Shown: piece after piece, positions 38,588-59,010 of the stretch
How positions within the stretch are numbered: the first letter of the stretch is position 1
How the letters are laid out: the number at the start of each line of letters is the position of its first letter
Source: Candidatus Latescibacterota bacterium
Lineage (GTDB): Bacteria; Latescibacterota; UBA2968; GCA-2709665
Length of the DNA stretch: 64,000 nt
Assembly (NCBI GenBank): GCA_965248435.1
Contig: OZ252100.1
Coordinates: 4,512,001 to 4,576,000, forward strand
Direction: 5' to 3'
Program-made: the position numbers and the translations under genes
The notes under the pieces: generated by a model
The model's input: only the letters and a program-made list of their open reading frames with translations
What the model was told of the DNA's origin: nothing
Databases searched by the model: none

Positions 38588-39865
38588 ATGCCTGCAGTGA
38601 AAACAACCCCTCCCAAATCCGACCTCGGCGATGCCTTCGCCGACATAACCGACCCTGACATCTACGTGCAGGGCGTTCCGCACGCCACATTCAAACGGTT
38701 GCGCCACGAAGACCCGGTAAGTTGGTGGGAGGAGAAAGAGGGTTCTGGATTCTGGGCCGTGACCCGCTATGAGGACATCATCACAGTGAGCCACGACCCG
38801 GGCCTGTTCTCTAGCGCCTCTGGCATTCGCCTAGAGGAAATGGATGAGGAAGAGCTGGAGGCGCGTTGTACGCTCATGGAGGTAGACCCACCCGAGCACT
38901 CGAGGTACCGGCGTCTGGTGCAGCCACAGTTCCTGCCCGATTCAGTAAATGCATATGAGGCTGCCATCCGTCTGCAGGCACGGGCGGTGATCGATGATGT
39001 GAAGGGAGAAAGTGAGTTCGACTTCGTGGAACGCGTTGCGACGCAACTCCCTATGCGGATGTTGGGGAAACTGTTAGGGGTCTCCGACAGCGACGGGGAT
39101 TGGCTCGTTAAAATGGGTGATGCGCTGATCGGCAACATGGATCCGGAGTTTACGACTCACCCTGTCGATCTGGTGGACACGGATGAATATCGACTGATGC
39201 CATTCCGAAGTCCCGTGAGCTACGAACTGTTCGAATACGCCGAGAACCAGGCCAGAGAACGCATGGCGAATCCTGCCGAAGATTTGATTACCCGCCTGCT
39301 CCAGCCGATGCGGGATGGGAATCGGCTTTCCGAAGAGGAGTTCAAAAACTTTTTCACCTTACTCGTCGCTGCAGGAAATGACACGACGCGCTACACAATG
39401 GCCGCGGGAATGCTGGCCCTGATCAACCACTCGGAACAGATGGCTGAGTTGAGGGACAACTTGACCTTGATGTCGTCCGCGACCGAAGAAATTCTACGCT
39501 GGGGCTCGGTGACGATGCATTTTCGTCGCACGGCGACACAGGACGCTGAACTGGGTCGCAGGCACATCAAGGCGGATGACAAGGTGGTAATCTGGTTCAT
39601 CTCCGGTGACTACGACGAGCAGCAGTTTCCCGATCCTTACCGGTTCGACATCAAGCGTTCGCCGAATAACCACGTCGCGTTCGGTCTGAGAGGTCCCCAC
39701 AAGTGTCTGGGTGAGCATCTGGCTCGCCTCGAAATTAAGGTGCTCTTCGAAGAGTTGCTACCTCTTCTGGCAGACATAAGACTGGGCGGCCCCATAGAGA
39801 GGCTGCGTTCAAATTTCATTTCGGGAATCAAGCACCTTCCCGTCAAAGCGACCTGGGTTCGATAA
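38588..39865 (+). CDS. Cytochrome P450
   Basis: I-helix 'AGNDTT', K-helix 'EEILR', heme ligand 'FG..GPHKCLG'. Confidence 0.95.
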   Translation: MPAVKTTPPKSDLGDAFADITDPDIYVQGVPHATFKRLRHEDPVSWWEEKEGSGFWAVTRYEDIITVSHDPGLFSSASGIRLEEMDEEELEARCTLMEVDPPEHSRYRRLVQPQFLPDSVNAYEAAIRLQARAVIDDVKGESEFDFVERVATQLPMRMLGKLLGVSDSDGDWLVKMGDALIGNMDPEFTTHPVDLVDTDEYRLMPFRSPVSYELFEYAENQARERMANPAEDLITRLLQPMRDGNRLSEEEFKNFFTLLVAAGNDTTRYTMAAGMLALINHSEQMAELRDNLTLMSSATEEILRWGSVTMHFRRTATQDAELGRRHIKADDKVVIWFISGDYDEQQFPDPYRFDIKRSPNNHVAFGLRGPHKCLGEHLARLEIKVLFEELLPLLADIRLGGPIERLRSNFISGIKHLPVKATWVR

Positions 39866-39878
39866 CCCAAGCGAGGGT

Positions 39879-40688
39879 GTGGATATGCCCATCAGTGGAT
39901 ACACGGCCCCCCTTTCGCCCGATGGAAGGGCCGGTATCGTGCCGCCTCCGCCGTGGCACTACTCGGGTGACTTCTTGATTGTCGAATACCGAACCGATCC
40001 GGAAGCCGTCACCGCCCTGTTGCCTCCGGAACTCCAACCGGCAGACGACCCGGGTGCGGTTGCCGCCATCTTCGCGGACTGGCAATCCTGCTCGGACGAT
40101 TTTCACGAACTGGTCGACCCGATTCAGTCTCAATACAAGGAGTTTTTCATCGTGGTGGGCTGTAAATACGACGGAAAACCGGCCAGCCGCTGTGTCTATA
40201 TCTGGGTCGATAAGGACTTCGCGATGTATCGGGGCTGGATTCAGGGTTTTCCGAAGAAACTGGGCTCCATCCACATGACACGCGTGTATCCAGTGGGGAA
40301 GGCCTTCCCGGCCATCGAGGCGGGTGCCCGTTTCGGTGCAACGTGCTGCGCGAACGACCGACAGATTGCACGCGCTGTGGTTACCCTTCAACGAATTTCT
40401 GAGACAGGCCCGACGGTCAATGATCCTCCGATGCACAATACCCGTCACTTCCCGGCCTACGACGGCCTGGTCCCCGACGTTTTCGAAATGGTCAAGGCCG
40501 GCGGGTTCGACCGCGAGGTCACGGAAATTTGGGAGGGGGATGCCGAGCTGACTTTTTACCCGGATACGATAGAGGACCTGAAGGCTATTGCTCCCGAAGA
40601 GATTATCATGGGCTATCGTTTTTCCTTTGCCTACACGGTGGAGGGTGGCGAGGTCCTTGCTCAACACGACAGGGTGGTGCATCAGTGA
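39879..40688 (+). CDS. Acetoacetate decarboxylase-like family protein
   Basis: 'PPPWHYSG', 'QYKEF', 'IWVD..RGWIQGFPKKLG' with the Schiff-base Lys region. Confidence 0.85.
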   Translation: MDMPISGYTAPLSPDGRAGIVPPPPWHYSGDFLIVEYRTDPEAVTALLPPELQPADDPGAVAAIFADWQSCSDDFHELVDPIQSQYKEFFIVVGCKYDGKPASRCVYIWVDKDFAMYRGWIQGFPKKLGSIHMTRVYPVGKAFPAIEAGARFGATCCANDRQIARAVVTLQRISETGPTVNDPPMHNTRHFPAYDGLVPDVFEMVKAGGFDREVTEIWEGDAELTFYPDTIEDLKAIAPEEIIMGYRFSFAYTVEGGEVLAQHDRVVHQ

Positions 40689-41548
40689 AACGTGCCCGGA
40701 TTCTCCATGGCGGGAAGCCAGTATGGGGCGTGGTCGAGGGCGGCGTGATCAAACTCGAGACCGGGGAGTCGGTTGACGAGGATAAGGCCAAGTATCGGCC
40801 GCCTGTGGCACCCTCGAAAATAATGGCCACTCACCTCTCTTACCGCAGCCGCTGTGTCGAATACAAGATGAAAAGCATTCCCCAGTACCCTTCTTACTTT
40901 ATGGTGCCGCCGACGGCCCTTTCTTACCATACCGCTCCGATCGCCCGACCTCGCGGATGCCACTTTCTGAATTACGAAGGGGAGGTCGCCGTCGTGATCG
41001 GAAAGCAATGCGTCAACGTGCCTGTCGAGGAGGCGCTGAGCTATGTAGCCGGGTACACGATCGCCAATGATTGGGGCGTTCACGACTTCCGGCACGCCGA
41101 CCGCGGTTCGATGTTTCGGGTGAAAGGCCAGGATGGGTTTTGCCCGGTCGGTCCGGTATTGGTGGACGCGGAAGATGTCGACCCCGATGACCTGACCCTG
41201 CGCACCACGGTAAACGGCGAGGTGGTCCAGGAGGGTCATACCGGCAGCGATCTCATCTTCTCTTTCGCTTACCAGATCGCGGACATCGCCCGACTGATCA
41301 CCCTGGAACCGGGTGACCTCTTGCTCACGGGCACTCCGGCCAACTCGAGGCCAGTAGAGATCGGGGATGTAGTTGCGGTGGAAGTCAGTGGAATCGGCCG
41401 CCTGGAGAATACGGTGGTCGAGCTGGACAGGGACCTGGTGCCGATTGGCGAGCAGCCTGCCGTTACCGGGGCCACACTTCACGTCGCACTGACCATACCT
41501 GAAGACGAAGCGGAACGACGTGCCTCTGAGTTTGGCGCGGATAACTAA
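40685..41548 (+). CDS. Fumarylacetoacetate hydrolase family protein
   Basis: GTGA overlap with the upstream stop; 'YEGEVAVVIG', 'GYTIAND', 'KGQDGFCPVGP', 'LEPGDLLLTGTP'. Confidence 0.9.
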   Translation: MKRARILHGGKPVWGVVEGGVIKLETGESVDEDKAKYRPPVAPSKIMATHLSYRSRCVEYKMKSIPQYPSYFMVPPTALSYHTAPIARPRGCHFLNYEGEVAVVIGKQCVNVPVEEALSYVAGYTIANDWGVHDFRHADRGSMFRVKGQDGFCPVGPVLVDAEDVDPDDLTLRTTVNGEVVQEGHTGSDLIFSFAYQIADIARLITLEPGDLLLTGTPANSRPVEIGDVVAVEVSGIGRLENTVVELDRDLVPIGEQPAVTGATLHVALTIPEDEAERRASEFGADN

Positions 41549-41564
41549 GAAGGAAGAACAGACG

Positions 41565-42482
41565 ATGAAACTCGTAACGGCTTTGCACCACGCTGCGCTA
41601 CGCGTGGCGGACCTGGCCGAGGCCTTTGAACGGTGGTCACACCTCTACGGCTTGAACGGAGCGTGCTTTGATGACCACGCCCGTCTGCGCTGCACACACG
41701 AAGACTTTTGTCTGTTGCTGCTTCCGTCACCAAAGGAACCAGGGCTCGAGTATGTCGCCTACGAGCTCATGCCGGGCCTGACCCTGGGCGAGGCTGCGGC
41801 GGAGCTCTCCAGGCGTGGGGTGGAGGCCCGAGAGATTGGGGTCCCTGTGCGGGACAAGGGTCTGCGGCTTTCTGATGCCGACGGAAATGGCATTGTTCTA
41901 CTGGAGCGCCAAACGTCCGAGGACACGCGCCCCGCTGAAATGATCTTAACTGGGGAGGTGCCCGGCTTCCACCCGCGTCGTTTGGGTCACGTGAACTACC
42001 TGACAGAGGACGTAAAACGGGCCGAAAAATGGTACGTGGAAAAACTCAGCTTCTCAGTAACAGACTGGATTGGCGATGAGGGATTGTGGCTGCACGTGAA
42101 CCCGATTCACCACGTAGCGGCCTTCTTGCAAAAGGGATTCAACCACATTCACCACATCGCCCTTGAGCTGGTCGACTGGGGCGAGATGCGCGTCGCGTTG
42201 GACCATCTGGCAAAAAACGAGAGAAGTGTAACGTGGGGACCGGGCCGTCATGGCATGGCCCGAAACATCTTCAGTTACTTGCGTATGCCCGAGGAAGACA
42301 TCTTTGTAGAACTATACTGTGACATGCAGCAGCTGGAGATTGACCACGTGCCGTTCCGGCATCCGGACGCGCCGCATTCATCGAATACCTGGGGCATCCT
42401 GCCGCCGCGTACCTATTTCCGTTTTGATGAAGAAGCGATCCAAATGGAACGGGACCAGACTTACGCATATGCCATGCCGTAG
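41565..42482 (+). CDS. VOC-superfamily extradiol ring-cleavage dioxygenase (catechol 2,3-dioxygenase-like)
   Basis: Two VOC domains; 'RRLGHVN', 'HH', 'HHIALE', 'WGPGRHG', Tyr and Glu in 'FSY..PE..FVELY'. Confidence 0.85.
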   Translation: MKLVTALHHAALRVADLAEAFERWSHLYGLNGACFDDHARLRCTHEDFCLLLLPSPKEPGLEYVAYELMPGLTLGEAAAELSRRGVEAREIGVPVRDKGLRLSDADGNGIVLLERQTSEDTRPAEMILTGEVPGFHPRRLGHVNYLTEDVKRAEKWYVEKLSFSVTDWIGDEGLWLHVNPIHHVAAFLQKGFNHIHHIALELVDWGEMRVALDHLAKNERSVTWGPGRHGMARNIFSYLRMPEEDIFVELYCDMQQLEIDHVPFRHPDAPHSSNTWGILPPRTYFRFDEEAIQMERDQTYAYAMP

Positions 42483-42704
42483 AAATGGGTTCTTCGCCGA
42501 GTCCGATCATACTTTTGCCGGCCATCGCTGTAGGACCGGTCTCCTGACCGGGAACTGGCTTCACATTCTTCTTCTAAGGCCAGAATGCAATGCCGGCAAT
42601 CTCAGCACCTTTAACCTCGGGCCCTAGTCAACGCAATCGCCCTGTTCCCCGACTGGAGTCGGATCCTACAGTTATCGGTGCCTATTCCCATGAGAGTGGT
42701 TTTG

Positions 42705-43013
42705 ATGCCAAAATTCGTCACAGTAGCTCAGAAATCTGAAATTTCCAGCGAATCGGGACGATGCGTCGAGGTTGAGGGCAAGCGCATCGCGCTGTTCAAT
42801 CTGGGGGGCGATTTCTACGCGATCGATGACTCGTGTCCCCACGAAGGCGGACCACTCAGCGAAGGTTTCATAGAGGGCGAGGAGGTGGAATGCCCCTGGC
42901 ACGGCGCCTGTTTCAACATTAAATCGGGGGCGGTTACTGCGCCGCCGGCCTTCGAGGACGTCACCAGATTCAACGTACGGGTCACAGAGAACGATATAGA
43001 AATCGAGGTCTAA
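42705..43013 (+). CDS. Rieske [2Fe-2S] ferredoxin
   Basis: CPH-x16-CPWH ('SCPHEGGPLSEG..ECPWHG'). Confidence 0.9.
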   Translation: MPKFVTVAQKSEISSESGRCVEVEGKRIALFNLGGDFYAIDDSCPHEGGPLSEGFIEGEEVECPWHGACFNIKSGAVTAPPAFEDVTRFNVRVTENDIEIEV

Positions 43014-48213: not shown

Positions 48214-48225
48214 TTCTTGAGACGA

Positions 48226-49503
48226 ATGGGGAACACCCAAGTGGATATCATAGAAGACCTGGAATTCAGGGGATACGTTTCCCAGAATTCCGACCCCGAG
48301 GGGTTGAAGCAGAGGCTCTCCACTGAACCCGTGACGCTCTACGCAGGTTTCGATCCGACGGCGGACAGTCTGCACGTGGGGAGCCTGATCCCCATCCTGG
48401 GGCTCCGTCGCTTCCAGATGGCGGGACATAGACCGATTGCACTCGTCGGCGGGGGAACGGGTCTGATCGGTGATCCGAGCGGCAGGGCCTCCGAGCGACA
48501 GTTGAACACCAAAGAAGTCGTGGACGGGTTCGTGGAACAGCAGAAGAGACAGCTGGAACAGTTTCTGGATTTTGAATCGAAGGGCAACGCGGCAAGCGTC
48601 GTAAACAACTTCACGTGGCTCTCCGAGCTCGGGATGATCGAATTCCTGAGAGATATCGGGAAGCATTTTCCGCTGGGATACATGCTTGCCAAGGAGTCCG
48701 TGGCGTCACGACTCGAGGCGGGCATCTCGTTTACGGAATTCAGCTACATGGTCTTTCAGGCGTGTGATTTCCTGGAACTGTTTTCCAGGTTCGACTGCGA
48801 GTTGCAGATCGGCGGAAGCGACCAGTGGGGAAACATTACGGCTGGGATCGAGCTCATCCGGCGGAAACTCGGGAAGCAGGCCTACGGGCTGACCTTTCCC
48901 CTGCTCGAAAAGGCGGATGGGAGCAAGTTCGGAAAGACGGAGTCGGATAACGTCTGGCTTGATCCAGTGAAATCGAGCCCATACCAGTTTTATCAATTTT
49001 GGATCAATACAGACGATCGCGATGTTATCAAGTTCTTGAAGATCTTCACGTTCCTCTCGAAAAAGGAGATCCTGGATGTCGAGGCAGAGGTCCTGGATCG
49101 ACCTGAAAAGCGGACGGCGCAACGCGTTCTGGCGGAGAGCGTGACGGAGTTGGTGCACGGGGCGGGGGCTACTCAGCGGGCAGCGCACATATCGCAGTCC
49201 CTTTTTTATGGCGACCTGGATAAGCTTTCAGCAGAGGAGATCGAGGAGGGGTTCAGGGATGTGCCCTCCTTCGCGCTCCAGAAGATGGACGGCATTGGGC
49301 TGATCGATCTCCTGGTGACGGCCGGCGTTTCGCCATCCAAGCGTCAGGCAAGAGAGGATGCCGGAAATGGTGCGATCACGATAAACGGGGAACGCTGCAC
49401 AGACCTCAATCGCCAGTTCGTCCCCTCAGATCGTCTGGGCGGAACCTATCTGGTCGTCCGGAGAGGGAAACAGAAATATCACCTCGTCCGGTGGGATGTT
49501 TGA
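48226..49503 (+). CDS. tyrS: Tyrosine--tRNA ligase
   Basis: 'YAGFDPTADSLHVG', 'QIGGSDQWGNI', 'KFGKT', C-terminal S4 domain. Confidence 0.97.
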   Translation: MGNTQVDIIEDLEFRGYVSQNSDPEGLKQRLSTEPVTLYAGFDPTADSLHVGSLIPILGLRRFQMAGHRPIALVGGGTGLIGDPSGRASERQLNTKEVVDGFVEQQKRQLEQFLDFESKGNAASVVNNFTWLSELGMIEFLRDIGKHFPLGYMLAKESVASRLEAGISFTEFSYMVFQACDFLELFSRFDCELQIGGSDQWGNITAGIELIRRKLGKQAYGLTFPLLEKADGSKFGKTESDNVWLDPVKSSPYQFYQFWINTDDRDVIKFLKIFTFLSKKEILDVEAEVLDRPEKRTAQRVLAESVTELVHGAGATQRAAHISQSLFYGDLDKLSAEEIEEGFRDVPSFALQKMDGIGLIDLLVTAGVSPSKRQAREDAGNGAITINGERCTDLNRQFVPSDRLGGTYLVVRRGKQKYHLVRWDV

Positions 49504-53106: not shown

Positions 53107-54219
53107 ATGTCGGATGATACCCAATTCGCTTCAGCCAGGATTACGATCGTTGGCGTCGGGCTGATCGGTGGATCGCTCGGGCTTGCCCTCAAGCGCTTTG
53201 GGATTGGACGAGAGATCGTCGGGGTCAGCCGACCCGAGACAGTTGAAGCCGCGAAAAAAATGGGGGCCATTGACACAGGATTTGACTATGATCAATTGAA
53301 AGCGGGTGTGGAGGAATCTGAACTTGTGATTCTCTCGACGCCCATTTCCCGGATTCTGGAGCTCTTACCCGAGGTTGTGTCCGGGGTTTCAGAAGGGACT
53401 CTGATTACCGACGTCGGGAGTACCAAGCGCGAAATCGTTGCTGTGGCATCTTCATTGAAGCGGGAAGGGGTCATCTTCGTCGGGGGGCACCCGATGGCGG
53501 GGTCCGAGCAGAGGGGCGTGACGGCCGCCGATCCCTTCCTTTTCGAGAACGCGATCTATATCGTTACCCCAGAGGATGACGTTCCCGAACTCTGGGTGAA
53601 TCGTTTGGTGAACCTGATCGGCCGCCTTGGTGCAAGGCCGATGCGGATCACTGCGCAGGCCCACGATCGTGTTGCTGCCGCGGTGAGTCACCTGCCCCAG
53701 TTGATGGCCACGGCTCTGGTTGGGATGATTGGACGGCTCCACGAGCAGGACGGGGTCCCGATCGAGATGGCAGCCGGGGGGTTCCGGGATCTGACGCGGA
53801 TCGCATCGAGCCCCTACGCAATGTGGCGCGACATCTGCAAGACAAATGTAGGACCGATCCGGGAGATGATCGATCTGTATCTCAGGGATCTGGGCGCCCT
53901 GCGAGATCGAGTGGATGACGACGAATTGGCGGGCAACTTCTCGTATGCAAATGAGATCCGAGGCAATATTCCCAAGGACTCGAAGGGATTTCTCCATACC
54001 CTACACGAGATCTTACTGATCGTCGAGGACCGCCCCGGAGTGATTGCAGGGGTTGCGACAGCGCTTTCGTCGGCAGGGATCAACATCGATGACATCGAAG
54101 TGCTCAAGGTTCGCGAGAGAGAGGGGGGTACGATTCGTATGGGATTCGATACGAAGGAAACCGCCGCGCGGGCCATTGCTATTCTGGATGAGGCGGGTTA
54201 CCGAGTTCGGATGAGGTAG
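53107..54219 (+). CDS. tyrA: Prephenate/arogenate dehydrogenase with C-terminal ACT domain
   Basis: 'GVGLIGGS', 'TDVGSTK', 'GGHPMAGSE', 'HD...A.VSHLP', 'GFRDLTRIA', ACT 'DRPGVIA'. Confidence 0.95.
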   Translation: MSDDTQFASARITIVGVGLIGGSLGLALKRFGIGREIVGVSRPETVEAAKKMGAIDTGFDYDQLKAGVEESELVILSTPISRILELLPEVVSGVSEGTLITDVGSTKREIVAVASSLKREGVIFVGGHPMAGSEQRGVTAADPFLFENAIYIVTPEDDVPELWVNRLVNLIGRLGARPMRITAQAHDRVAAAVSHLPQLMATALVGMIGRLHEQDGVPIEMAAGGFRDLTRIASSPYAMWRDICKTNVGPIREMIDLYLRDLGALRDRVDDDELAGNFSYANEIRGNIPKDSKGFLHTLHEILLIVEDRPGVIAGVATALSSAGINIDDIEVLKVREREGGTIRMGFDTKETAARAIAILDEAGYRVRMR

Positions 54220-54222
54220 AGA

Positions 54223-55551
54223 ATGGAGATGAGAGAGCTCGTTTCTGAGTCAATGGAGCAGACGGTCTCGCCGATCAAGGGACTTTCGGGTGAGTGCGAT
54301 CTTCCAGGGCATCCAGAGCTGTCCATGATGGCGCTGGCCCTGTCGGCCAAGGCCGAGGGGACGTCTATTATCCGCCGATGCTCGCGCCGGCCTGAGGTAA
54401 AGACCCTCGCAGGATACCTGGCCCAGATAGGGATAACGGTGGGCTGGGAGGCTGAGGAAGCCAGGGTCACGGGGGGCGTGCTTCAGGCCTCGAATGGTGC
54501 GTTTGATGTCGGGCGATCCGAAGTCCTCTTCGGGTGCCTGGCCGGGCTTGCCGCGGGGGCGGACCTTAGACTGACGTTTGAGGGAAGTCCAGCCGCCGAA
54601 ACCGGCGTGAAGCCCGTCCTGGAAGCGCTTCAATCGTTCGGCGCAAGGTTCACTCCATCCTTCGAAAGCGTCTTCCCCGTAGAGAGCGGGGGCAGCAAGC
54701 CGAGACCCGGTTCTTTCGGTGCCGGCAGGCCAAGCGCTGCAGTCAAAACAGCTGTTTTCCTGGCTACGCTGGATGTCGGCGGTGAGATCGAACTGCTTCA
54801 GGAGGCCGCAGGCGAAGAGGATCTCGAGGTCCTGCTGAAGGCAGCGGGAGGAGACCTTAGGAAGGCCAGGGTTCAGGGAGGGGAAGGCTATCGCCTCGTG
54901 CTGCGCGGACCGGTGTCGGTTCAGGCGACCGAGCAAGATCTTCCAGGGGACCCGGATGCCGCCTTGTTTCTTTTGTTCGCCGCATCCATGCATAAGACGT
55001 CCGACGTGACGCTGCTCGGTGTTGGAAATGACTGGAAGACCCGACGGCTGCTGGACCTGCTGCGGCGGATGAACGCACAGATCGAGATCAAGGTGACACG
55101 ATCCGCATCAGGATTTTCCACGCGCATCGTGCGCGCGACGGGATCGGAGCTTCGGCGTACGAAGATTTCGGGGGAGCAGTCGTCCCTCTTTATGGACGAG
55201 ATCCCGGTTCTGGCCGTGATGGGCGCGCGGGCGGCCGGCGAGACGGTCATTCGGGATGCCCGTGCTCTGCGCGATGGTCCCAACGACTGCCTTGCCTTGA
55301 TGGCGGAGAATCTTCGCAAGATGCAGGTCCGCGTCGGAGAGATTACAGACGGGTTGGTGGTCCAGGGGGGAAGGACGCTTCGCGGCGCGGATGTGGATGG
55401 GGGTGGGGATTCGCGCGTCACCCTGGCGCTTACGCTTGCAGGGCTTGTGGCAGAAGGAGAAACGAAGATCAAAAATCCGGGCCCCGTCGATCGAGACTAC
55501 CCCGGCGTTCTGGACCGCTTGTTGTCCCTGAGCGAAAAGAGAGGGGAGTGA
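54223..55551 (+). CDS. EPSP synthase (AroA)-fold protein with degenerate active site
   Basis: Length and scaffold match AroA ('PG', 'S..VK.A..LA', 'PGD', 'DEIPVLAV.GA.A.GET.I', 'YP'), but KS..HR, GNSGT, RPM, SAQ, KE.DR and DHR are substituted. Confidence 0.75.
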   Translation: MEMRELVSESMEQTVSPIKGLSGECDLPGHPELSMMALALSAKAEGTSIIRRCSRRPEVKTLAGYLAQIGITVGWEAEEARVTGGVLQASNGAFDVGRSEVLFGCLAGLAAGADLRLTFEGSPAAETGVKPVLEALQSFGARFTPSFESVFPVESGGSKPRPGSFGAGRPSAAVKTAVFLATLDVGGEIELLQEAAGEEDLEVLLKAAGGDLRKARVQGGEGYRLVLRGPVSVQATEQDLPGDPDAALFLLFAASMHKTSDVTLLGVGNDWKTRRLLDLLRRMNAQIEIKVTRSASGFSTRIVRATGSELRRTKISGEQSSLFMDEIPVLAVMGARAAGETVIRDARALRDGPNDCLALMAENLRKMQVRVGEITDGLVVQGGRTLRGADVDGGGDSRVTLALTLAGLVAEGETKIKNPGPVDRDYPGVLDRLLSLSEKRGE

Positions 55552-55553
55552 TT

Positions 55554-55694
55554 ATGAAGGTGTTACTCAGGTTGGCACTGTTGACGATTCTCACGGTTTT
55601 TGGGGCCGTCGCCTTTATTCGGTATACCTATGGCTGTTCCTGGAAGGAAAGTTTCGACATCGCGGACCGGTTCGTCGAGGACCTCCTAGGGTAA
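55554..55694 (+). CDS. Small (46 aa) membrane-anchored hypothetical protein
   Basis: GGGGAG then ATG; MKVLLRLALLTILTVFGAVAFIRYTYGCSWKESFDIADRFVEDLLG exactly fills the aroA-like/aroE gap. Not in the ORF track. Confidence 0.6.
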   Translation: MKVLLRLALLTILTVFGAVAFIRYTYGCSWKESFDIADRFVEDLLG

Positions 55695-55703
55695 GGATCC
55701 AGT

Positions 55704-56570
55704 TTGAAGATCCAGGCAACGAGTCAGGTGCTCGGTGTGATCGGGCACCCGATTTCTCATTCTTTTTCCCCAGACCTTCACAACGCCGCAATCGATGCCC
55801 TTGGCATCGATTATTGCTATGTGGCCTATCATGTCCTGCCGGATAGGGTTGGATCCGCGATCGAGGGATTGCGCGGCCTGAACATTCGGGGTCTAAACGT
55901 TACGATTCCCCATAAACTGGCGGTGATGGAACATCTGGACCAGATTTCGGAGGAGGCCCTGGCCGTCGGTGCTGTGAACACGATCTCGCACGAAGCGGAC
56001 GAGTTGATCGGCTACAACACGGACGTCTACGGAATTGAGGCCGCACTGGTGCGCGTGGCCGGTCTGGAACTGTTGCCAGAAAACTGCGTTGTCCTGGGTG
56101 CGGGTGGTGCCGCTCGGGCGGTTGTCTACGCCCTTGGGAATCGGAAGGAAGTCCAAAGGATCACGATCTTGAACCGAACCGCAAAGCGGGCCGAGGACCT
56201 TGCCAAGGACATGGAAAAGTTGACGGGGAAGACGATCGATGTTGGCGGAATGGACGCCGACGGCCAGGATCGGGCCTTTTCGGAGGCGGGACTCGTCGTG
56301 AATGCGACTTCACTGGGGATGGTTCCGAACATAAAAGATTCCCCCCTGATGAGCGAACGTGCGGTTCACTCAAACCTGGTACTCTACGACACCGTATTCA
56401 ACCCACTCGAGACCCGGCTTATGGGGCAGTTCCGTGAGGTGGGGGCTCAGGCCTTTGGCGGCCTGGATATGCTCGTCTTTCAGGGCGCGCGATCGTTCCA
56501 GATATGGACCGGTATCGAGCCCCCCGTCGATGTGATGAAGCAGGCTGTTCTCTCCAGTCTTAAGACTTAG
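55704..56570 (+). CDS. aroE: Shikimate dehydrogenase
   Basis: 'GHPISHSFSP', 'NVTIPHK', 'GAVNT', 'NTD', 'GAGGAARA', 'NATSLGM', 'GLDMLVFQG'. Confidence 0.95.
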   Translation: MKIQATSQVLGVIGHPISHSFSPDLHNAAIDALGIDYCYVAYHVLPDRVGSAIEGLRGLNIRGLNVTIPHKLAVMEHLDQISEEALAVGAVNTISHEADELIGYNTDVYGIEAALVRVAGLELLPENCVVLGAGGAARAVVYALGNRKEVQRITILNRTAKRAEDLAKDMEKLTGKTIDVGGMDADGQDRAFSEAGLVVNATSLGMVPNIKDSPLMSERAVHSNLVLYDTVFNPLETRLMGQFREVGAQAFGGLDMLVFQGARSFQIWTGIEPPVDVMKQAVLSSLKT

Positions 56571-57303: not shown

Positions 57304-59010
57304 TTGCCGAACCCCTTTGTAGATGAGATCGTGCAGCAACTGGCCCAGGCATCGGGTGTTTCATCTGAGGACTTCGTCCCCCTGATCGAAGTGCCCCCAA
57401 ATCCGGACCTGGGAGATTACGCGCTGCCCTGTTTTAGCCTGGCAAAGACGCTTCGGAAGGCCCCGAACCAGATCGCGCTGGAGTTGGCAGAGCAGTTGAA
57501 ATTCGGCGACAGGATCTCGGAGGTACGCGCGGCGGGACCCTATATCAATTTCTTCGTTCACCCGTCCAGCTTTGTCGAGGAGGTCCTCTCGAAGGTTCTT
57601 GCCCAGAGTCGAGAGTTCGGTCGTACAGATGTCGGGACTGGTAAGACGATCGTCATCGATTTTTCCCACCCGAACGTCGCCAAGCCTTTCGGGATTCATC
57701 ACCTGCGTTCGACAGTGATCGGGAATGCGCTCAGGAATATCTTCCGGGCGCTGGGATACGAGGTTGTGGGCGTCAACCACCTAGGAGACTGGGGTTCTCA
57801 GTTCGCCAAGCTCATTGTGGCCTGGAAGCGCTGGGGTGAAGGCGAGCTCACAGAAGAGGCCATCAACATCCAATCGCTTTTGGATCTCTACGTGCGAATC
57901 CACGAGGAGATCGAAGACGATCCTGCGGTAGAAGAAGAAGCCCGAAACTGGTTCCGACGCCTGGAGGACGGAGATGCTGAAGCCACGCGTATGTGGCAGG
58001 TATGCGTTAATGTCAGCTTCAAAGAGTTCAACCGCGTTTATGAAACGCTGGGGATCACGTTTGAATCCGTGGCGGGGGAGAGTTTTTATCAGGATAAGAT
58101 GCCGGCTACGCTCAAGCGGTTGGAGGAGATGGGACTTACCCGGATCAGCGAAGGGGCGACGATTGTAGACCTCTCCGAGTGGGATATGTCTCCCTTCATG
58201 GCCCTGCGAAGTGACGATGCCACGCTTTATGCCACGCGCGATCTGGCCGCGGTCGAATACCGCCAGGAAACCTACGGGTTTCATCAGATGCTCTATGTGG
58301 TAGACGTGGCGCAGTCTCTGCATTTCAGGCAGCTGTTCAAGGTCCTGGAGTTGATGGGCTATGAATGGGGCGAACGATGTGCCCACGTCGTGTTCGGCCG
58401 GCTTCGCTTCAAGGATGGAGCGATGTCTACGCGGCGGGGTCAGATTATCTTTCTGGAAGACGTGCTGAACAAGGCGGTGGATCTGACACGGGAGATCATC
58501 GAAGAGAAGAACCCGGATTTGCCGGACAAGGAGCAGGTGGCTCGAGATGTGGGGATCGGGGCTGTAATCTTCGCTGACTTGGATTCCCGTCGGGTTCGGG
58601 ACGTTGTGTTCGACTGGGACGAAGTCCTGAATTTTAACGGAGAGACCGGGCCTTATGTTCAGTATACACACGCGCGCTATCGTAGTGTGCTGCGGAACTT
58701 TGGACAAGCCCTGCCCCCTTCGGATGTCGATTTCTCTCTTCTGACCGAGCCTGAGACGCTTGCCGTTGTGAAATGCCTGGAACAGTTCCCGTCGCAGATT
58801 GAAAACGCGGCTGAGGAGTATGAACCCTCGCTCATCGCCACATATCTGATCGATCTGTGTAGGGTCGCGAACCGGTTCTACAACGCACACCGCGTGATTT
58901 CGGAAGAGGCACCGCTGACATCGGCGCGCGTGGCGCTCGTTTATGCCATCACGGAAGTGCTGGCCGCCGGGCTGGATCTTCTGGGCATGAAGGCGCCCGA
59001 GCAGATGTGA
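57304..59010 (+). CDS. argS: Arginine--tRNA ligase
   Basis: 'GDY', 'GPYINF', 'DFSHPNVAKP..HLRSTVIG', 'NHLGDWG', 'MSTRRG', 'GETGPYVQYTHAR', C-terminal 'PEQM'. Confidence 0.97.
   Translation: MPNPFVDEIVQQLAQASGVSSEDFVPLIEVPPNPDLGDYALPCFSLAKTLRKAPNQIALELAEQLKFGDRISEVRAAGPYINFFVHPSSFVEEVLSKVLAQSREFGRTDVGTGKTIVIDFSHPNVAKPFGIHHLRSTVIGNALRNIFRALGYEVVGVNHLGDWGSQFAKLIVAWKRWGEGELTEEAINIQSLLDLYVRIHEEIEDDPAVEEEARNWFRRLEDGDAEATRMWQVCVNVSFKEFNRVYETLGITFESVAGESFYQDKMPATLKRLEEMGLTRISEGATIVDLSEWDMSPFMALRSDDATLYATRDLAAVEYRQETYGFHQMLYVVDVAQSLHFRQLFKVLELMGYEWGERCAHVVFGRLRFKDGAMSTRRGQIIFLEDVLNKAVDLTREIIEEKNPDLPDKEQVARDVGIGAVIFADLDSRRVRDVVFDWDEVLNFNGETGPYVQYTHARYRSVLRNFGQALPPSDVDFSLLTEPETLAVVKCLEQFPSQIENAAEEYEPSLIATYLIDLCRVANRFYNAHRVISEEAPLTSARVALVYAITEVLAAGLDLLGMKAPEQM

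Follow-up and report, generated by a model that had tools for sequence, protein, structure and literature searches.

The window analysed here, a 64,000-nucleotide stretch of a Candidatus Latescibacterota genome (GenBank assembly GCA_965248435.1, contig OZ252100.1, positions 4,512,001 to 4,576,000 of the forward strand), contains an apparently dead paralogue of class II EPSP synthase (EPSPS, gene aroA; EPSP stands for 5-enolpyruvylshikimate 3-phosphate), which we call psAroA. Its open reading frame (ORF; 54223-55551, +, stop codon included) encodes 442 residues without internal stop. Upstream lies tyrA (53107-54219, +), encoding prephenate dehydrogenase with a C-terminal ACT domain, with its stop codon 3 nucleotides before the ATG of psAroA; downstream follow a conserved small ORF (55548-55694, +) and aroE (55704-56570, +), the shikimate dehydrogenase gene. 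ORF, translation and neighbours thus bear out a preliminary description of this DNA, which had reported an intact 442-codon frame in the usual tyrA-aroA slot.

The protein matches the Pfam profile PF00275 end to end (residues 16-433 on positions 2-417 of 417, 142.9 bits). No other Pfam family was found up to an E-value of 1, which leaves out membership in the RtcA/Rcl1 sequence family. On the NCBIfam aroA equivalog TIGR01356, psAroA reaches 162.8 bits, below the cut-off of 287.25, and on the MurA model TIGR01072 it reaches 52.4 bits, below the cut-off of 392.7 for MurA membership. The best relatives with a solved structure are class II EPSPS, led by the Coxiella enzyme (E-value 2e-40) and followed by those of Streptococcus pneumoniae and Agrobacterium CP4.

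EPSPS binds its substrates shikimate 3-phosphate (S3P) and phosphoenolpyruvate (PEP) via the Lys, Ser and Arg of the PGDKSxSHR motif, the Asn, Gly and Arg of GNSGTxxR, the Arg of RPM, the Gln of SAQ, the Asp of DE, the Lys, Glu and Arg of KExDR, and the His and Arg of DHR. In a HMMER alignment of psAroA to Coxiella AroA (4gfp/3roi), PGDKSISHR is replaced by PGHPELSMM, GNSGTAIR by GRSEVLFG, RRPM by ETGV, SAQVK by SAAVK, SRDHTE by GEEDLE, RVKETDR by RDGPNDC and DDHR by GDSR, and only the DE(F/I)P motif is retained. Each of the motif replacements that had been read by eye in the preliminary description was reproduced, and a proper alignment to EPSPS references leaves the catalytic residues replaced. 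We scored 16 catalytic positions in 151 proteins (P0001 and the 150 best representatives). All 16 were present in 107 proteins and fewer than 13 in 27. Retention in psAroA was limited to 4 of the 16, namely the Asp of PGD, the D-E pair and one Arg. The Lys of the Coxiella VKTSFP motif is not conserved among class II enzymes and was therefore not counted as lost. The fold of psAroA is complete and the active site gutted. With 12 of 16 positions replaced, several of them by residues of opposite charge, and with natural single-domain forms (see below) that have no cleft to close, EPSPS catalysis is very unlikely, and we infer from the residues that psAroA is catalytically inactive as an EPSPS.

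A word-indexed search identified a sharply bounded group of 50 clusters with at least 281 bits and 38-59% identity, here called the dead clade. Beneath it, scores fall to 170 bits for ordinary AroA proteins of about 32% identity. The 50 members were compared column by column with 70 ordinary class II enzymes. K31 was changed to P, E or A, S32 to D, E or N, R36 to M, Q or L, and R104 to G or A; R127 and Q173 were mostly changed to A, R198 to D or E, and H200 to D (48 of 50); K352 was changed to G in all 50 members, and the R356 column contained C, R or V. Since every one of the 50 close relatives shows replacements in these columns, the residue loss is not an accident of alignment or a sequencing error. 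Residues that are fixed specifically in the clade include Q193, an acidic D/E198-D199-D200-x-E202 cluster, D270-W271-x-T273 and N284, with D270, W271 and T273 found in 44-49 and N284 in 38 of the 50 sequences. The replaced positions are not the same in family f4 and in the order of families f1 and f2 (f and g number families and genera throughout). Overall charge and isoelectric point show no difference between dead and live forms. Public sources list the clade proteins as '3-phosphoshikimate 1-carboxyvinyltransferase' or 'hypothetical'.

A profile of the dead clade, run against 1.84 billion representatives, matched 2101 proteins at an E-value threshold of 1e-30. Among 12 added degenerate representatives, 8 grouped with the dead clade in a quick tree (SH-aLRT 93). 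Three partly degenerate representatives clustered with intact enzymes instead, and EPSPS has therefore undergone degeneration on more than one occasion in this region of the bacterial tree. One of these three, the AroA of a Candidatus Zixiibacteriota metagenome-assembled genome (L067:4001-5368), is a class II form that keeps 10 of 16 positions. The middle domain bears most of its losses. Among the changes, the first motif has R for K and Q for R, GNSGT..R has D for G and Y for R, a Q has become L, and DHR reads DHL; the RDHTE and KETDR motifs are intact, and the gene adjoins argS. As this protein clusters with the intact enzymes, it is a separate and earlier stage of degeneration. In genus g25 of family f4 (L036, L037), the dead AroA has about 404-408 amino acids and carries ...IEDMPHVEHL... 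instead of the KExDR loop. Fused forms of psAroA were not found among proteins of 775-2210 amino acids at the same E-value threshold, which is weak evidence. Long open frames upstream of f4 genes were considered as fusions and rejected, as they are off-frame readings across tyrA.

If psAroA is inactive, EPSP has to be made by another protein, and the preliminary description had placed true EPSPS activity elsewhere. This expectation is supported. The source genome (5.67 Mb) holds three PF00275 genes, for psAroA, for MurA and for an intact class-I-type AroA. A search of the genome for a second intact aroA located the last of these at C1:1931111-1932421 (1.93 Mb); it has all catalytic motifs and scores 454.5 bits on TIGR01356. 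Of the 53 genomes of the order, 52 have an orthologue (58-77% identity), as do all three genomes of the neighbouring family f3. The sole genome of the order without a match is a 95% complete assembly in 320 contigs. In family f4, two kinds of intact AroA occur beside the dead copy: in g25, g26 and g18 it is 52-55% identical to the source-genome AroA, and in the other genera only 33-40% (compare G106:C1:1116739-1117965 with G136:C1:3061763-3063028), which suggests more than one replacement event. The separate MurA of the source genome (474.6 bits on TIGR01072; C1:~1317525-1318751; L002:1453-2745, -) reads PGGDKIGRR and has an Asp at the usual Cys position. Many MurA enzymes carry at this place the Cys that is alkylated by fosfomycin; with its Asp, the MurA of the source genome would be of the naturally fosfomycin-insensitive type.

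In outgroup classes of the phylum (L040, L041, L042), the equivalent tyrA-aroA-aroE slot is occupied by a class II AroA that is intact at 16 of 16 positions. For five genomes with an intact operon copy (G050, G070, G047, G069 and G065), the best match to the class-I-type AroA was the operon copy itself, and these genomes therefore have a single AroA. In an IQ-TREE analysis of 39 sequences, 17 of them dead and drawn from families f1, f2, f4 and f10, all dead sequences lay on one side of a branch (support 95/96), and a further split (98/95) set the dead sequences, together with the intact forms of the phylum, apart from other class II enzymes. Both stems are long (0.70 and 1.18 changes per site), psAroA being on the latter. 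On these grounds, psAroA is shown to descend from the phylum's own operon-encoded class II AroA. The simplest history would be that the class II operon enzyme was made redundant by a second AroA, went through a burst of catalytic residue loss, and then settled.

The AlphaFold2 model of psAroA, built on an alignment of 105 sequences, has the EPSPS fold (pLDDT 96, pTM 0.93), and Foldseek superposed it on the CP4 and Coxiella enzymes (E-value 1.5e-36, TM score 0.77-0.86). The chain can be divided into N-terminal strands at about residues 12-29 (54256-54309, +; E12-15 and E20-26 in the model), which are structurally part of the C-terminal domain, a middle globular domain of residues 30-240 (54310-54942, +), which is the more relaxed half, and a C-terminal globular domain of residues 241-442 (54943-55548, +), which is the conserved core and contains the D270-W271-x-T273, N284 and G352 invariants.

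The middle domain has been cut out in frame in nature. In all 21 genomes of genus g6, the protein has 214-223 residues, with the N-terminal strands (...ARGLxGECDVPG) fused in frame to residue ~243 (DPE/DTxLYLL...). The excision removes the whole middle domain exactly at (L/V)PG motifs, where the chain crosses between domains. A similar form of 215-227 residues is found in family f3, which belongs to a different order. As full-length forms are kept in other genera of g6's own family and in families f1 and f4, there were at least two independent excisions. The single-domain protein was modelled with a pLDDT of 93.6 and a pTM of 0.90 and with the N-terminal strands in place; it superposes on one EPSPS domain with a TM score of 0.80 and a root-mean-square deviation of 2.3-2.8 over ~198 columns (Z up to 27).

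Selection on psAroA was estimated from the ratio of nonsynonymous to synonymous changes (dN/dS, pairwise Nei-Gojobori on related genomes). For the full-length form in genus g3 (13 genomes, 78 pairs), dN/dS was 0.269, compared with 0.131 for tyrA, 0.136 for aroE and 0.058 for the small ORF. For the shortened form in g6 (21 genomes, 208 of 210 pairs usable), the values were 0.155 for psAroA, 0.106 for tyrA, 0.149 for aroE and 0.134 for the small ORF. One close pair in f4, which is a distant family within the same class, gave 0.189, 0.149 and 0.163 for psAroA, tyrA and aroE, and the comparison of the source genome with its sister species G001, which has a remnant of the gene, gave 0.187, 0.137 and 0.161, with 0.164 for the small ORF. 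Within g3, the middle domain had a dN/dS of 0.325 and the N-terminal strands plus C-terminal domain one of 0.218. Close strains of the tyrA-aroE stretch on seawater metagenome contigs from three studies are mostly 95-99% alike and free of insertions or deletions; among the variants listed (40 of 104 shown), 17 of the 20 in psAroA are synonymous, and the 3 replacements are all in the middle domain. psAroA is thus under purifying selection, and neutral decay is excluded, as anticipated when the copy was first described as maintained. The g6 psAroA had a dS of 0.345, versus 0.25-0.27 for its neighbours. Since dS is not lowered, the constraint is on the protein and not on a nucleic-acid element, and an RNA or DNA element in the 3' half was rejected as the cause of retention. 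Rate covariation with neighbours, analysed for 21 taxa, was non-discriminating, with partial correlations of 0.39-0.59 for every pair.

Because g6 and f3 have shed the middle domain while the rest stays constrained and folds confidently, we infer that the selected core is the C-terminal domain. The protein as a whole is useful but, given its losses in single lineages, not indispensable. In the EPSPS fold, helix N-termini point into the cleft between the domains. In the model, polar residues of the C-terminal domain that are specific to the clade or retained (D243, D270-W271-x-T273, D325/E326, G352/D355 and D396/R398) lie at or just before helix N-termini of this domain. The secondary structure and the general fold therefore suggest that the former cleft face of this domain, which would be exposed in the single-domain forms, is the functional surface.

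The gene is part of a supraoperon with the order trpE, trpD, trpC, trpF, tyrS, trpB, trpA, chorismate mutase, DAHP (3-deoxy-D-arabino-heptulosonate 7-phosphate) synthase, tyrA, psAroA, small ORF, aroE, ubiE, argS, aroK and aroB. The order from DAHP synthase through tyrA, psAroA and aroE to ubiE is kept in 19 of 19 loci from relatives (L005-L023) and in further syntenic loci. tyrA adjoins psAroA in all of these and is its constant upstream neighbour; there is no further tie between TyrA and psAroA. The trpB-trpA-chorismate mutase-tyrA-aroA-aroE-...-aroK arrangement is also found, with an intact class II AroA, in loci from candidate division KSB1 (L073) and Calditrichaceae (L076), and the supraoperon is therefore much older than the degeneration of AroA. 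Two genes for aminoacyl-tRNA synthetases, tyrS (48217-49500, +) and argS (57304-59010, +), are embedded in it. The position of argS is kept class-wide, and argS also adjoins the degenerate AroA of the Zixibacteria genome. Just upstream of trpE (38588-43010, +) are genes for a cytochrome P450, a fumarylacetoacetate-hydrolase-family protein, a glyoxalase/dioxygenase-family protein and a Rieske ferredoxin, which may form a module for the degradation of aromatic compounds beside the biosynthetic operon.

The small ORF, which appears to be unannotated, encodes 46 amino acids when counted from its ATG (55554); there is also a GTG (55548) that overlaps with the stop codon of psAroA, and the same overlap of stop and start is found in g6. 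Its product has one predicted hydrophobic membrane helix, followed by a C/xSW(K/R)ESFxIAxxFVxDLL tail with invariant S-W-x-E. With a hidden Markov model of the ORF, a single copy was found in 147 out of 168 genomes from this phylum. Its place is always between the aroA or psAroA gene, where there is one, and aroE, immediately upstream of the latter, and it is strongly constrained (see the value for g3 above). It had no match among Pfam or NCBIfam families, and the best score in the ESM Atlas was 0.80, within a range that is attained with shuffled proteins in a third of cases. The small ORF follows an intact AroA in L040 and L041 and pairs with aroE without psAroA in G009 and G071, the latter also without tyrA. 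An obligate partnership of its product with psAroA was considered and is less likely, as the ORF predates the degeneration and survives without psAroA. When TyrA, the small ORF product and psAroA, each given as an alignment, were predicted as a three-chain complex, the score was 0.00, in a run without controls, which speaks neither for nor against a complex. In G009, private substitutions gave no usable signal (4 in tyrA, range 1-5; 1 in aroE, range 0-13; 2 in the small ORF, range 0-1).

Together, these observations are best explained, in our opinion, by psAroA being a maintained pseudoenzyme that has its working part in the C-terminal domain and acts by binding, with EPSP synthesis carried out by the class-I-type AroA, and we regard this as rather probable. 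An ancestral class II EPSPS encoded between tyrA and aroE gave rise to psAroA. In the class of the source genome, a second, class-I-type AroA encoded elsewhere supplies EPSP synthesis, and the operon copy has shed the Lys, Arg, Ser, Gln, Asn and His side chains with which S3P and PEP are bound. The folded protein is retained under purifying selection, with the C-terminal domain and the N-terminal strands that complete it probably doing the work and the other domain being dispensable. Most likely, this work would be non-catalytic binding by the face of the C-terminal domain that formerly lined the active-site cleft. Proteins and small ligands both come into question as the target, and a plausible one would be a product of the aromatic-amino-acid operon itself. 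That psAroA works by binding is a guess, and so is any choice of partner.

Several observations weigh against this interpretation. The gene is dispensable in some lineages. In G009, a clean deletion has removed it from between tyrA and the small ORF, as seen on a contig of 906 kb. In the sister species G001, a more extensive deletion has spared only ~160 C-terminal codons, which are out of frame with the former start, probably a recent loss. Families f8, f13 and f14 have the class-I-type AroA, and in them a dead copy either cannot be recognised or gives a weak match only. The rate of evolution of full-length forms is about double that of the neighbouring genes (44-60% versus 57-76% identity), and the dN/dS values come from pairs of genomes that are not independent. 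The end branch of the f10 sequence is very long (3.2), so that the dead state did not with certainty arise only once, and the grouping of dead sequences might partly reflect long-branch attraction. Finally, the contigs of metatranscriptome run X20, both of them short, lay on tyrA and on aroE and not on psAroA, although contigs cannot show absence.

Some of these points fit a functionless relic locked in the operon. According to this explanation, which we consider unlikely, the frame stays open since nonsense or frameshift mutations would disturb the transcription or translation of essential downstream genes (the small ORF, aroE, argS, aroK and aroB), the amino acid constraint reflects no more than selection against a misfolding, aggregating product, and removal is possible only by clean deletions. 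Recurrent clean or domain-precise deletions (G009; G001, g6 and f3) would be expected, as would the absence of the dead copy from f8, f13 and f14, the overlap of the psAroA stop with the small ORF start, and the twofold relaxation of full-length forms. However, avoidance of stops alone should lead to a dN/dS near 1, whereas 0.16-0.33 was observed in every part of the protein, and in forms that have shed one domain the other half is under a constraint as strong as that on aroE (0.155 versus 0.149). Moreover, the invariants specific to the clade (D270, W271, T273 and N284), which are polar or aromatic, replaced residues of the catalytic era and then stayed fixed, and the copy persists class-wide and in f10, where neighbours are down to ~50% identity.

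Fixed residues of this kind could also be those of a neofunctionalised enzyme, in which the remodelled cleft, acidic rather than basic, would catalyse a new reaction or accept a metal or cationic substrate. Clade invariants do occupy former active-site positions (Q193, D/E198-D199-D200-x-E202, D270-W271), and D325/E326 and R398 are kept. Diversification of the enolpyruvyl-transferase fold has precedents: both NikO and MurA match the psAroA model, and MurA is reported to make EPSP in bryophytes (PMC11588093). A new enzyme nevertheless seems distinctly improbable to us. In two lineages, deletion of the whole middle domain took with it the acidic D198-E202 cluster and one half of the cleft; what is left is still strongly constrained, and a two-domain clamshell active site is therefore not what is selected there. 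The differences in replaced positions between family f4 and the order of f1 and f2 point in the same direction. That psAroA is still an active EPSPS with an unorthodox active site we consider extremely improbable. The complete, confidently predicted fold and the canonical operon position would suit such an enzyme, but most substrate-binding and catalytic positions are replaced as described above, the aroA equivalog cut-off is not reached, the source genome and nearly all genomes of the order (52 of 53) contain an intact AroA, and the single-domain forms have no cleft that they could close.

A binding role for the pseudoenzyme could be specified further by analogy. HisZ is an inactive paralogue of histidyl-tRNA synthetase that serves as a regulatory subunit of ATP phosphoribosyltransferase, and Rcl1 is an inactive member of an enzyme family that acts as a binding and assembly factor. 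Like these, psAroA or its C-terminal domain may be a dedicated regulatory or assembly subunit for TyrA, AroE or DAHP synthase, contacting its partner via D270-W271, G352/D355 and D396/R398 on the exposed face of the former cleft, a proposal that we put forward tentatively and with more doubt than confidence. If it is true, the ancestral class II enzyme already had a second job, which would explain why the copy survived the takeover by the class-I-type AroA across a class of marine Latescibacterota, and probably in related phyla.

EPSPS is among the best-studied enzymes, both as the glyphosate target and as a drug target, and psAroA would add a new pseudoenzyme family to it. Full-text literature searches, including searches on the shikimate pathway of this phylum, brought up no inactive but selected EPSPS paralogue in the passages that they returned. 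Pseudoenzymes as such are already known; as far as these passages go, there seems to be no earlier account of a dead EPSPS that has single-domain derivatives in nature. The natural series from the intact enzyme through a dead two-domain and a dead single-domain protein to loss points to a C-terminal domain with a second, non-catalytic role. In practical terms, predictions of the pathway or of glyphosate sensitivity that rely on the PF00275 match in the operon would choose the wrong gene. If a partner is found, psAroA would be a bacterial case of enzyme replacement that leaves a moonlighting scaffold behind.

Among known systems, the closest intact relatives are the phylum's own operon-encoded class II AroA proteins (L040-L042). 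They have the tyrA-aroA-(small ORF)-aroE arrangement in common with psAroA, but retain 16 of 16 positions and are the only AroA of their genomes, whereas psAroA sits on its long stem of 1.18 changes per site. The structurally characterized class II EPSPS of Agrobacterium CP4 (2gg6) and Coxiella burnetii (3roi/3slh) resemble psAroA in the two-domain fold, in 26-33% sequence identity and in the slot after tyrA; unlike them, psAroA has 4 of 16 positions, scores below the equivalog cut-off and is encoded in a genome that has an intact AroA besides. The isolated domain of E. coli EPSPS (1p89) demonstrates that one EPSPS domain can stand alone, and it matches the single-domain form with a Z-score of 13.1 and a root-mean-square deviation of 3.1 over 175 residues. 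It is, however, a laboratory construct of the N-terminal (middle) domain, whereas the natural forms consist of the C-terminal domain and the N-terminal strands. The single-domain model also shares the three-repeat domain superfold of Rcl1, with Z-scores of 11.0-12.6 against Rcl1 chains in the Rcl1-Bms1 complex (4clq) and in pre-ribosome complexes (5oql, 7mq8), and of 12.1-12.7 against RtcA. The likeness is one of fold only; Rcl1 is eukaryotic, acts in ribosome biogenesis (small-subunit processome) and is derived from RtcA and not from EPSPS. HisZ is similar to psAroA in being a dead enzyme paralogue kept in the context of amino acid biosynthesis. Fold and pathway differ, and HisZ has a proven partner, another enzyme of its own pathway, to which it binds.

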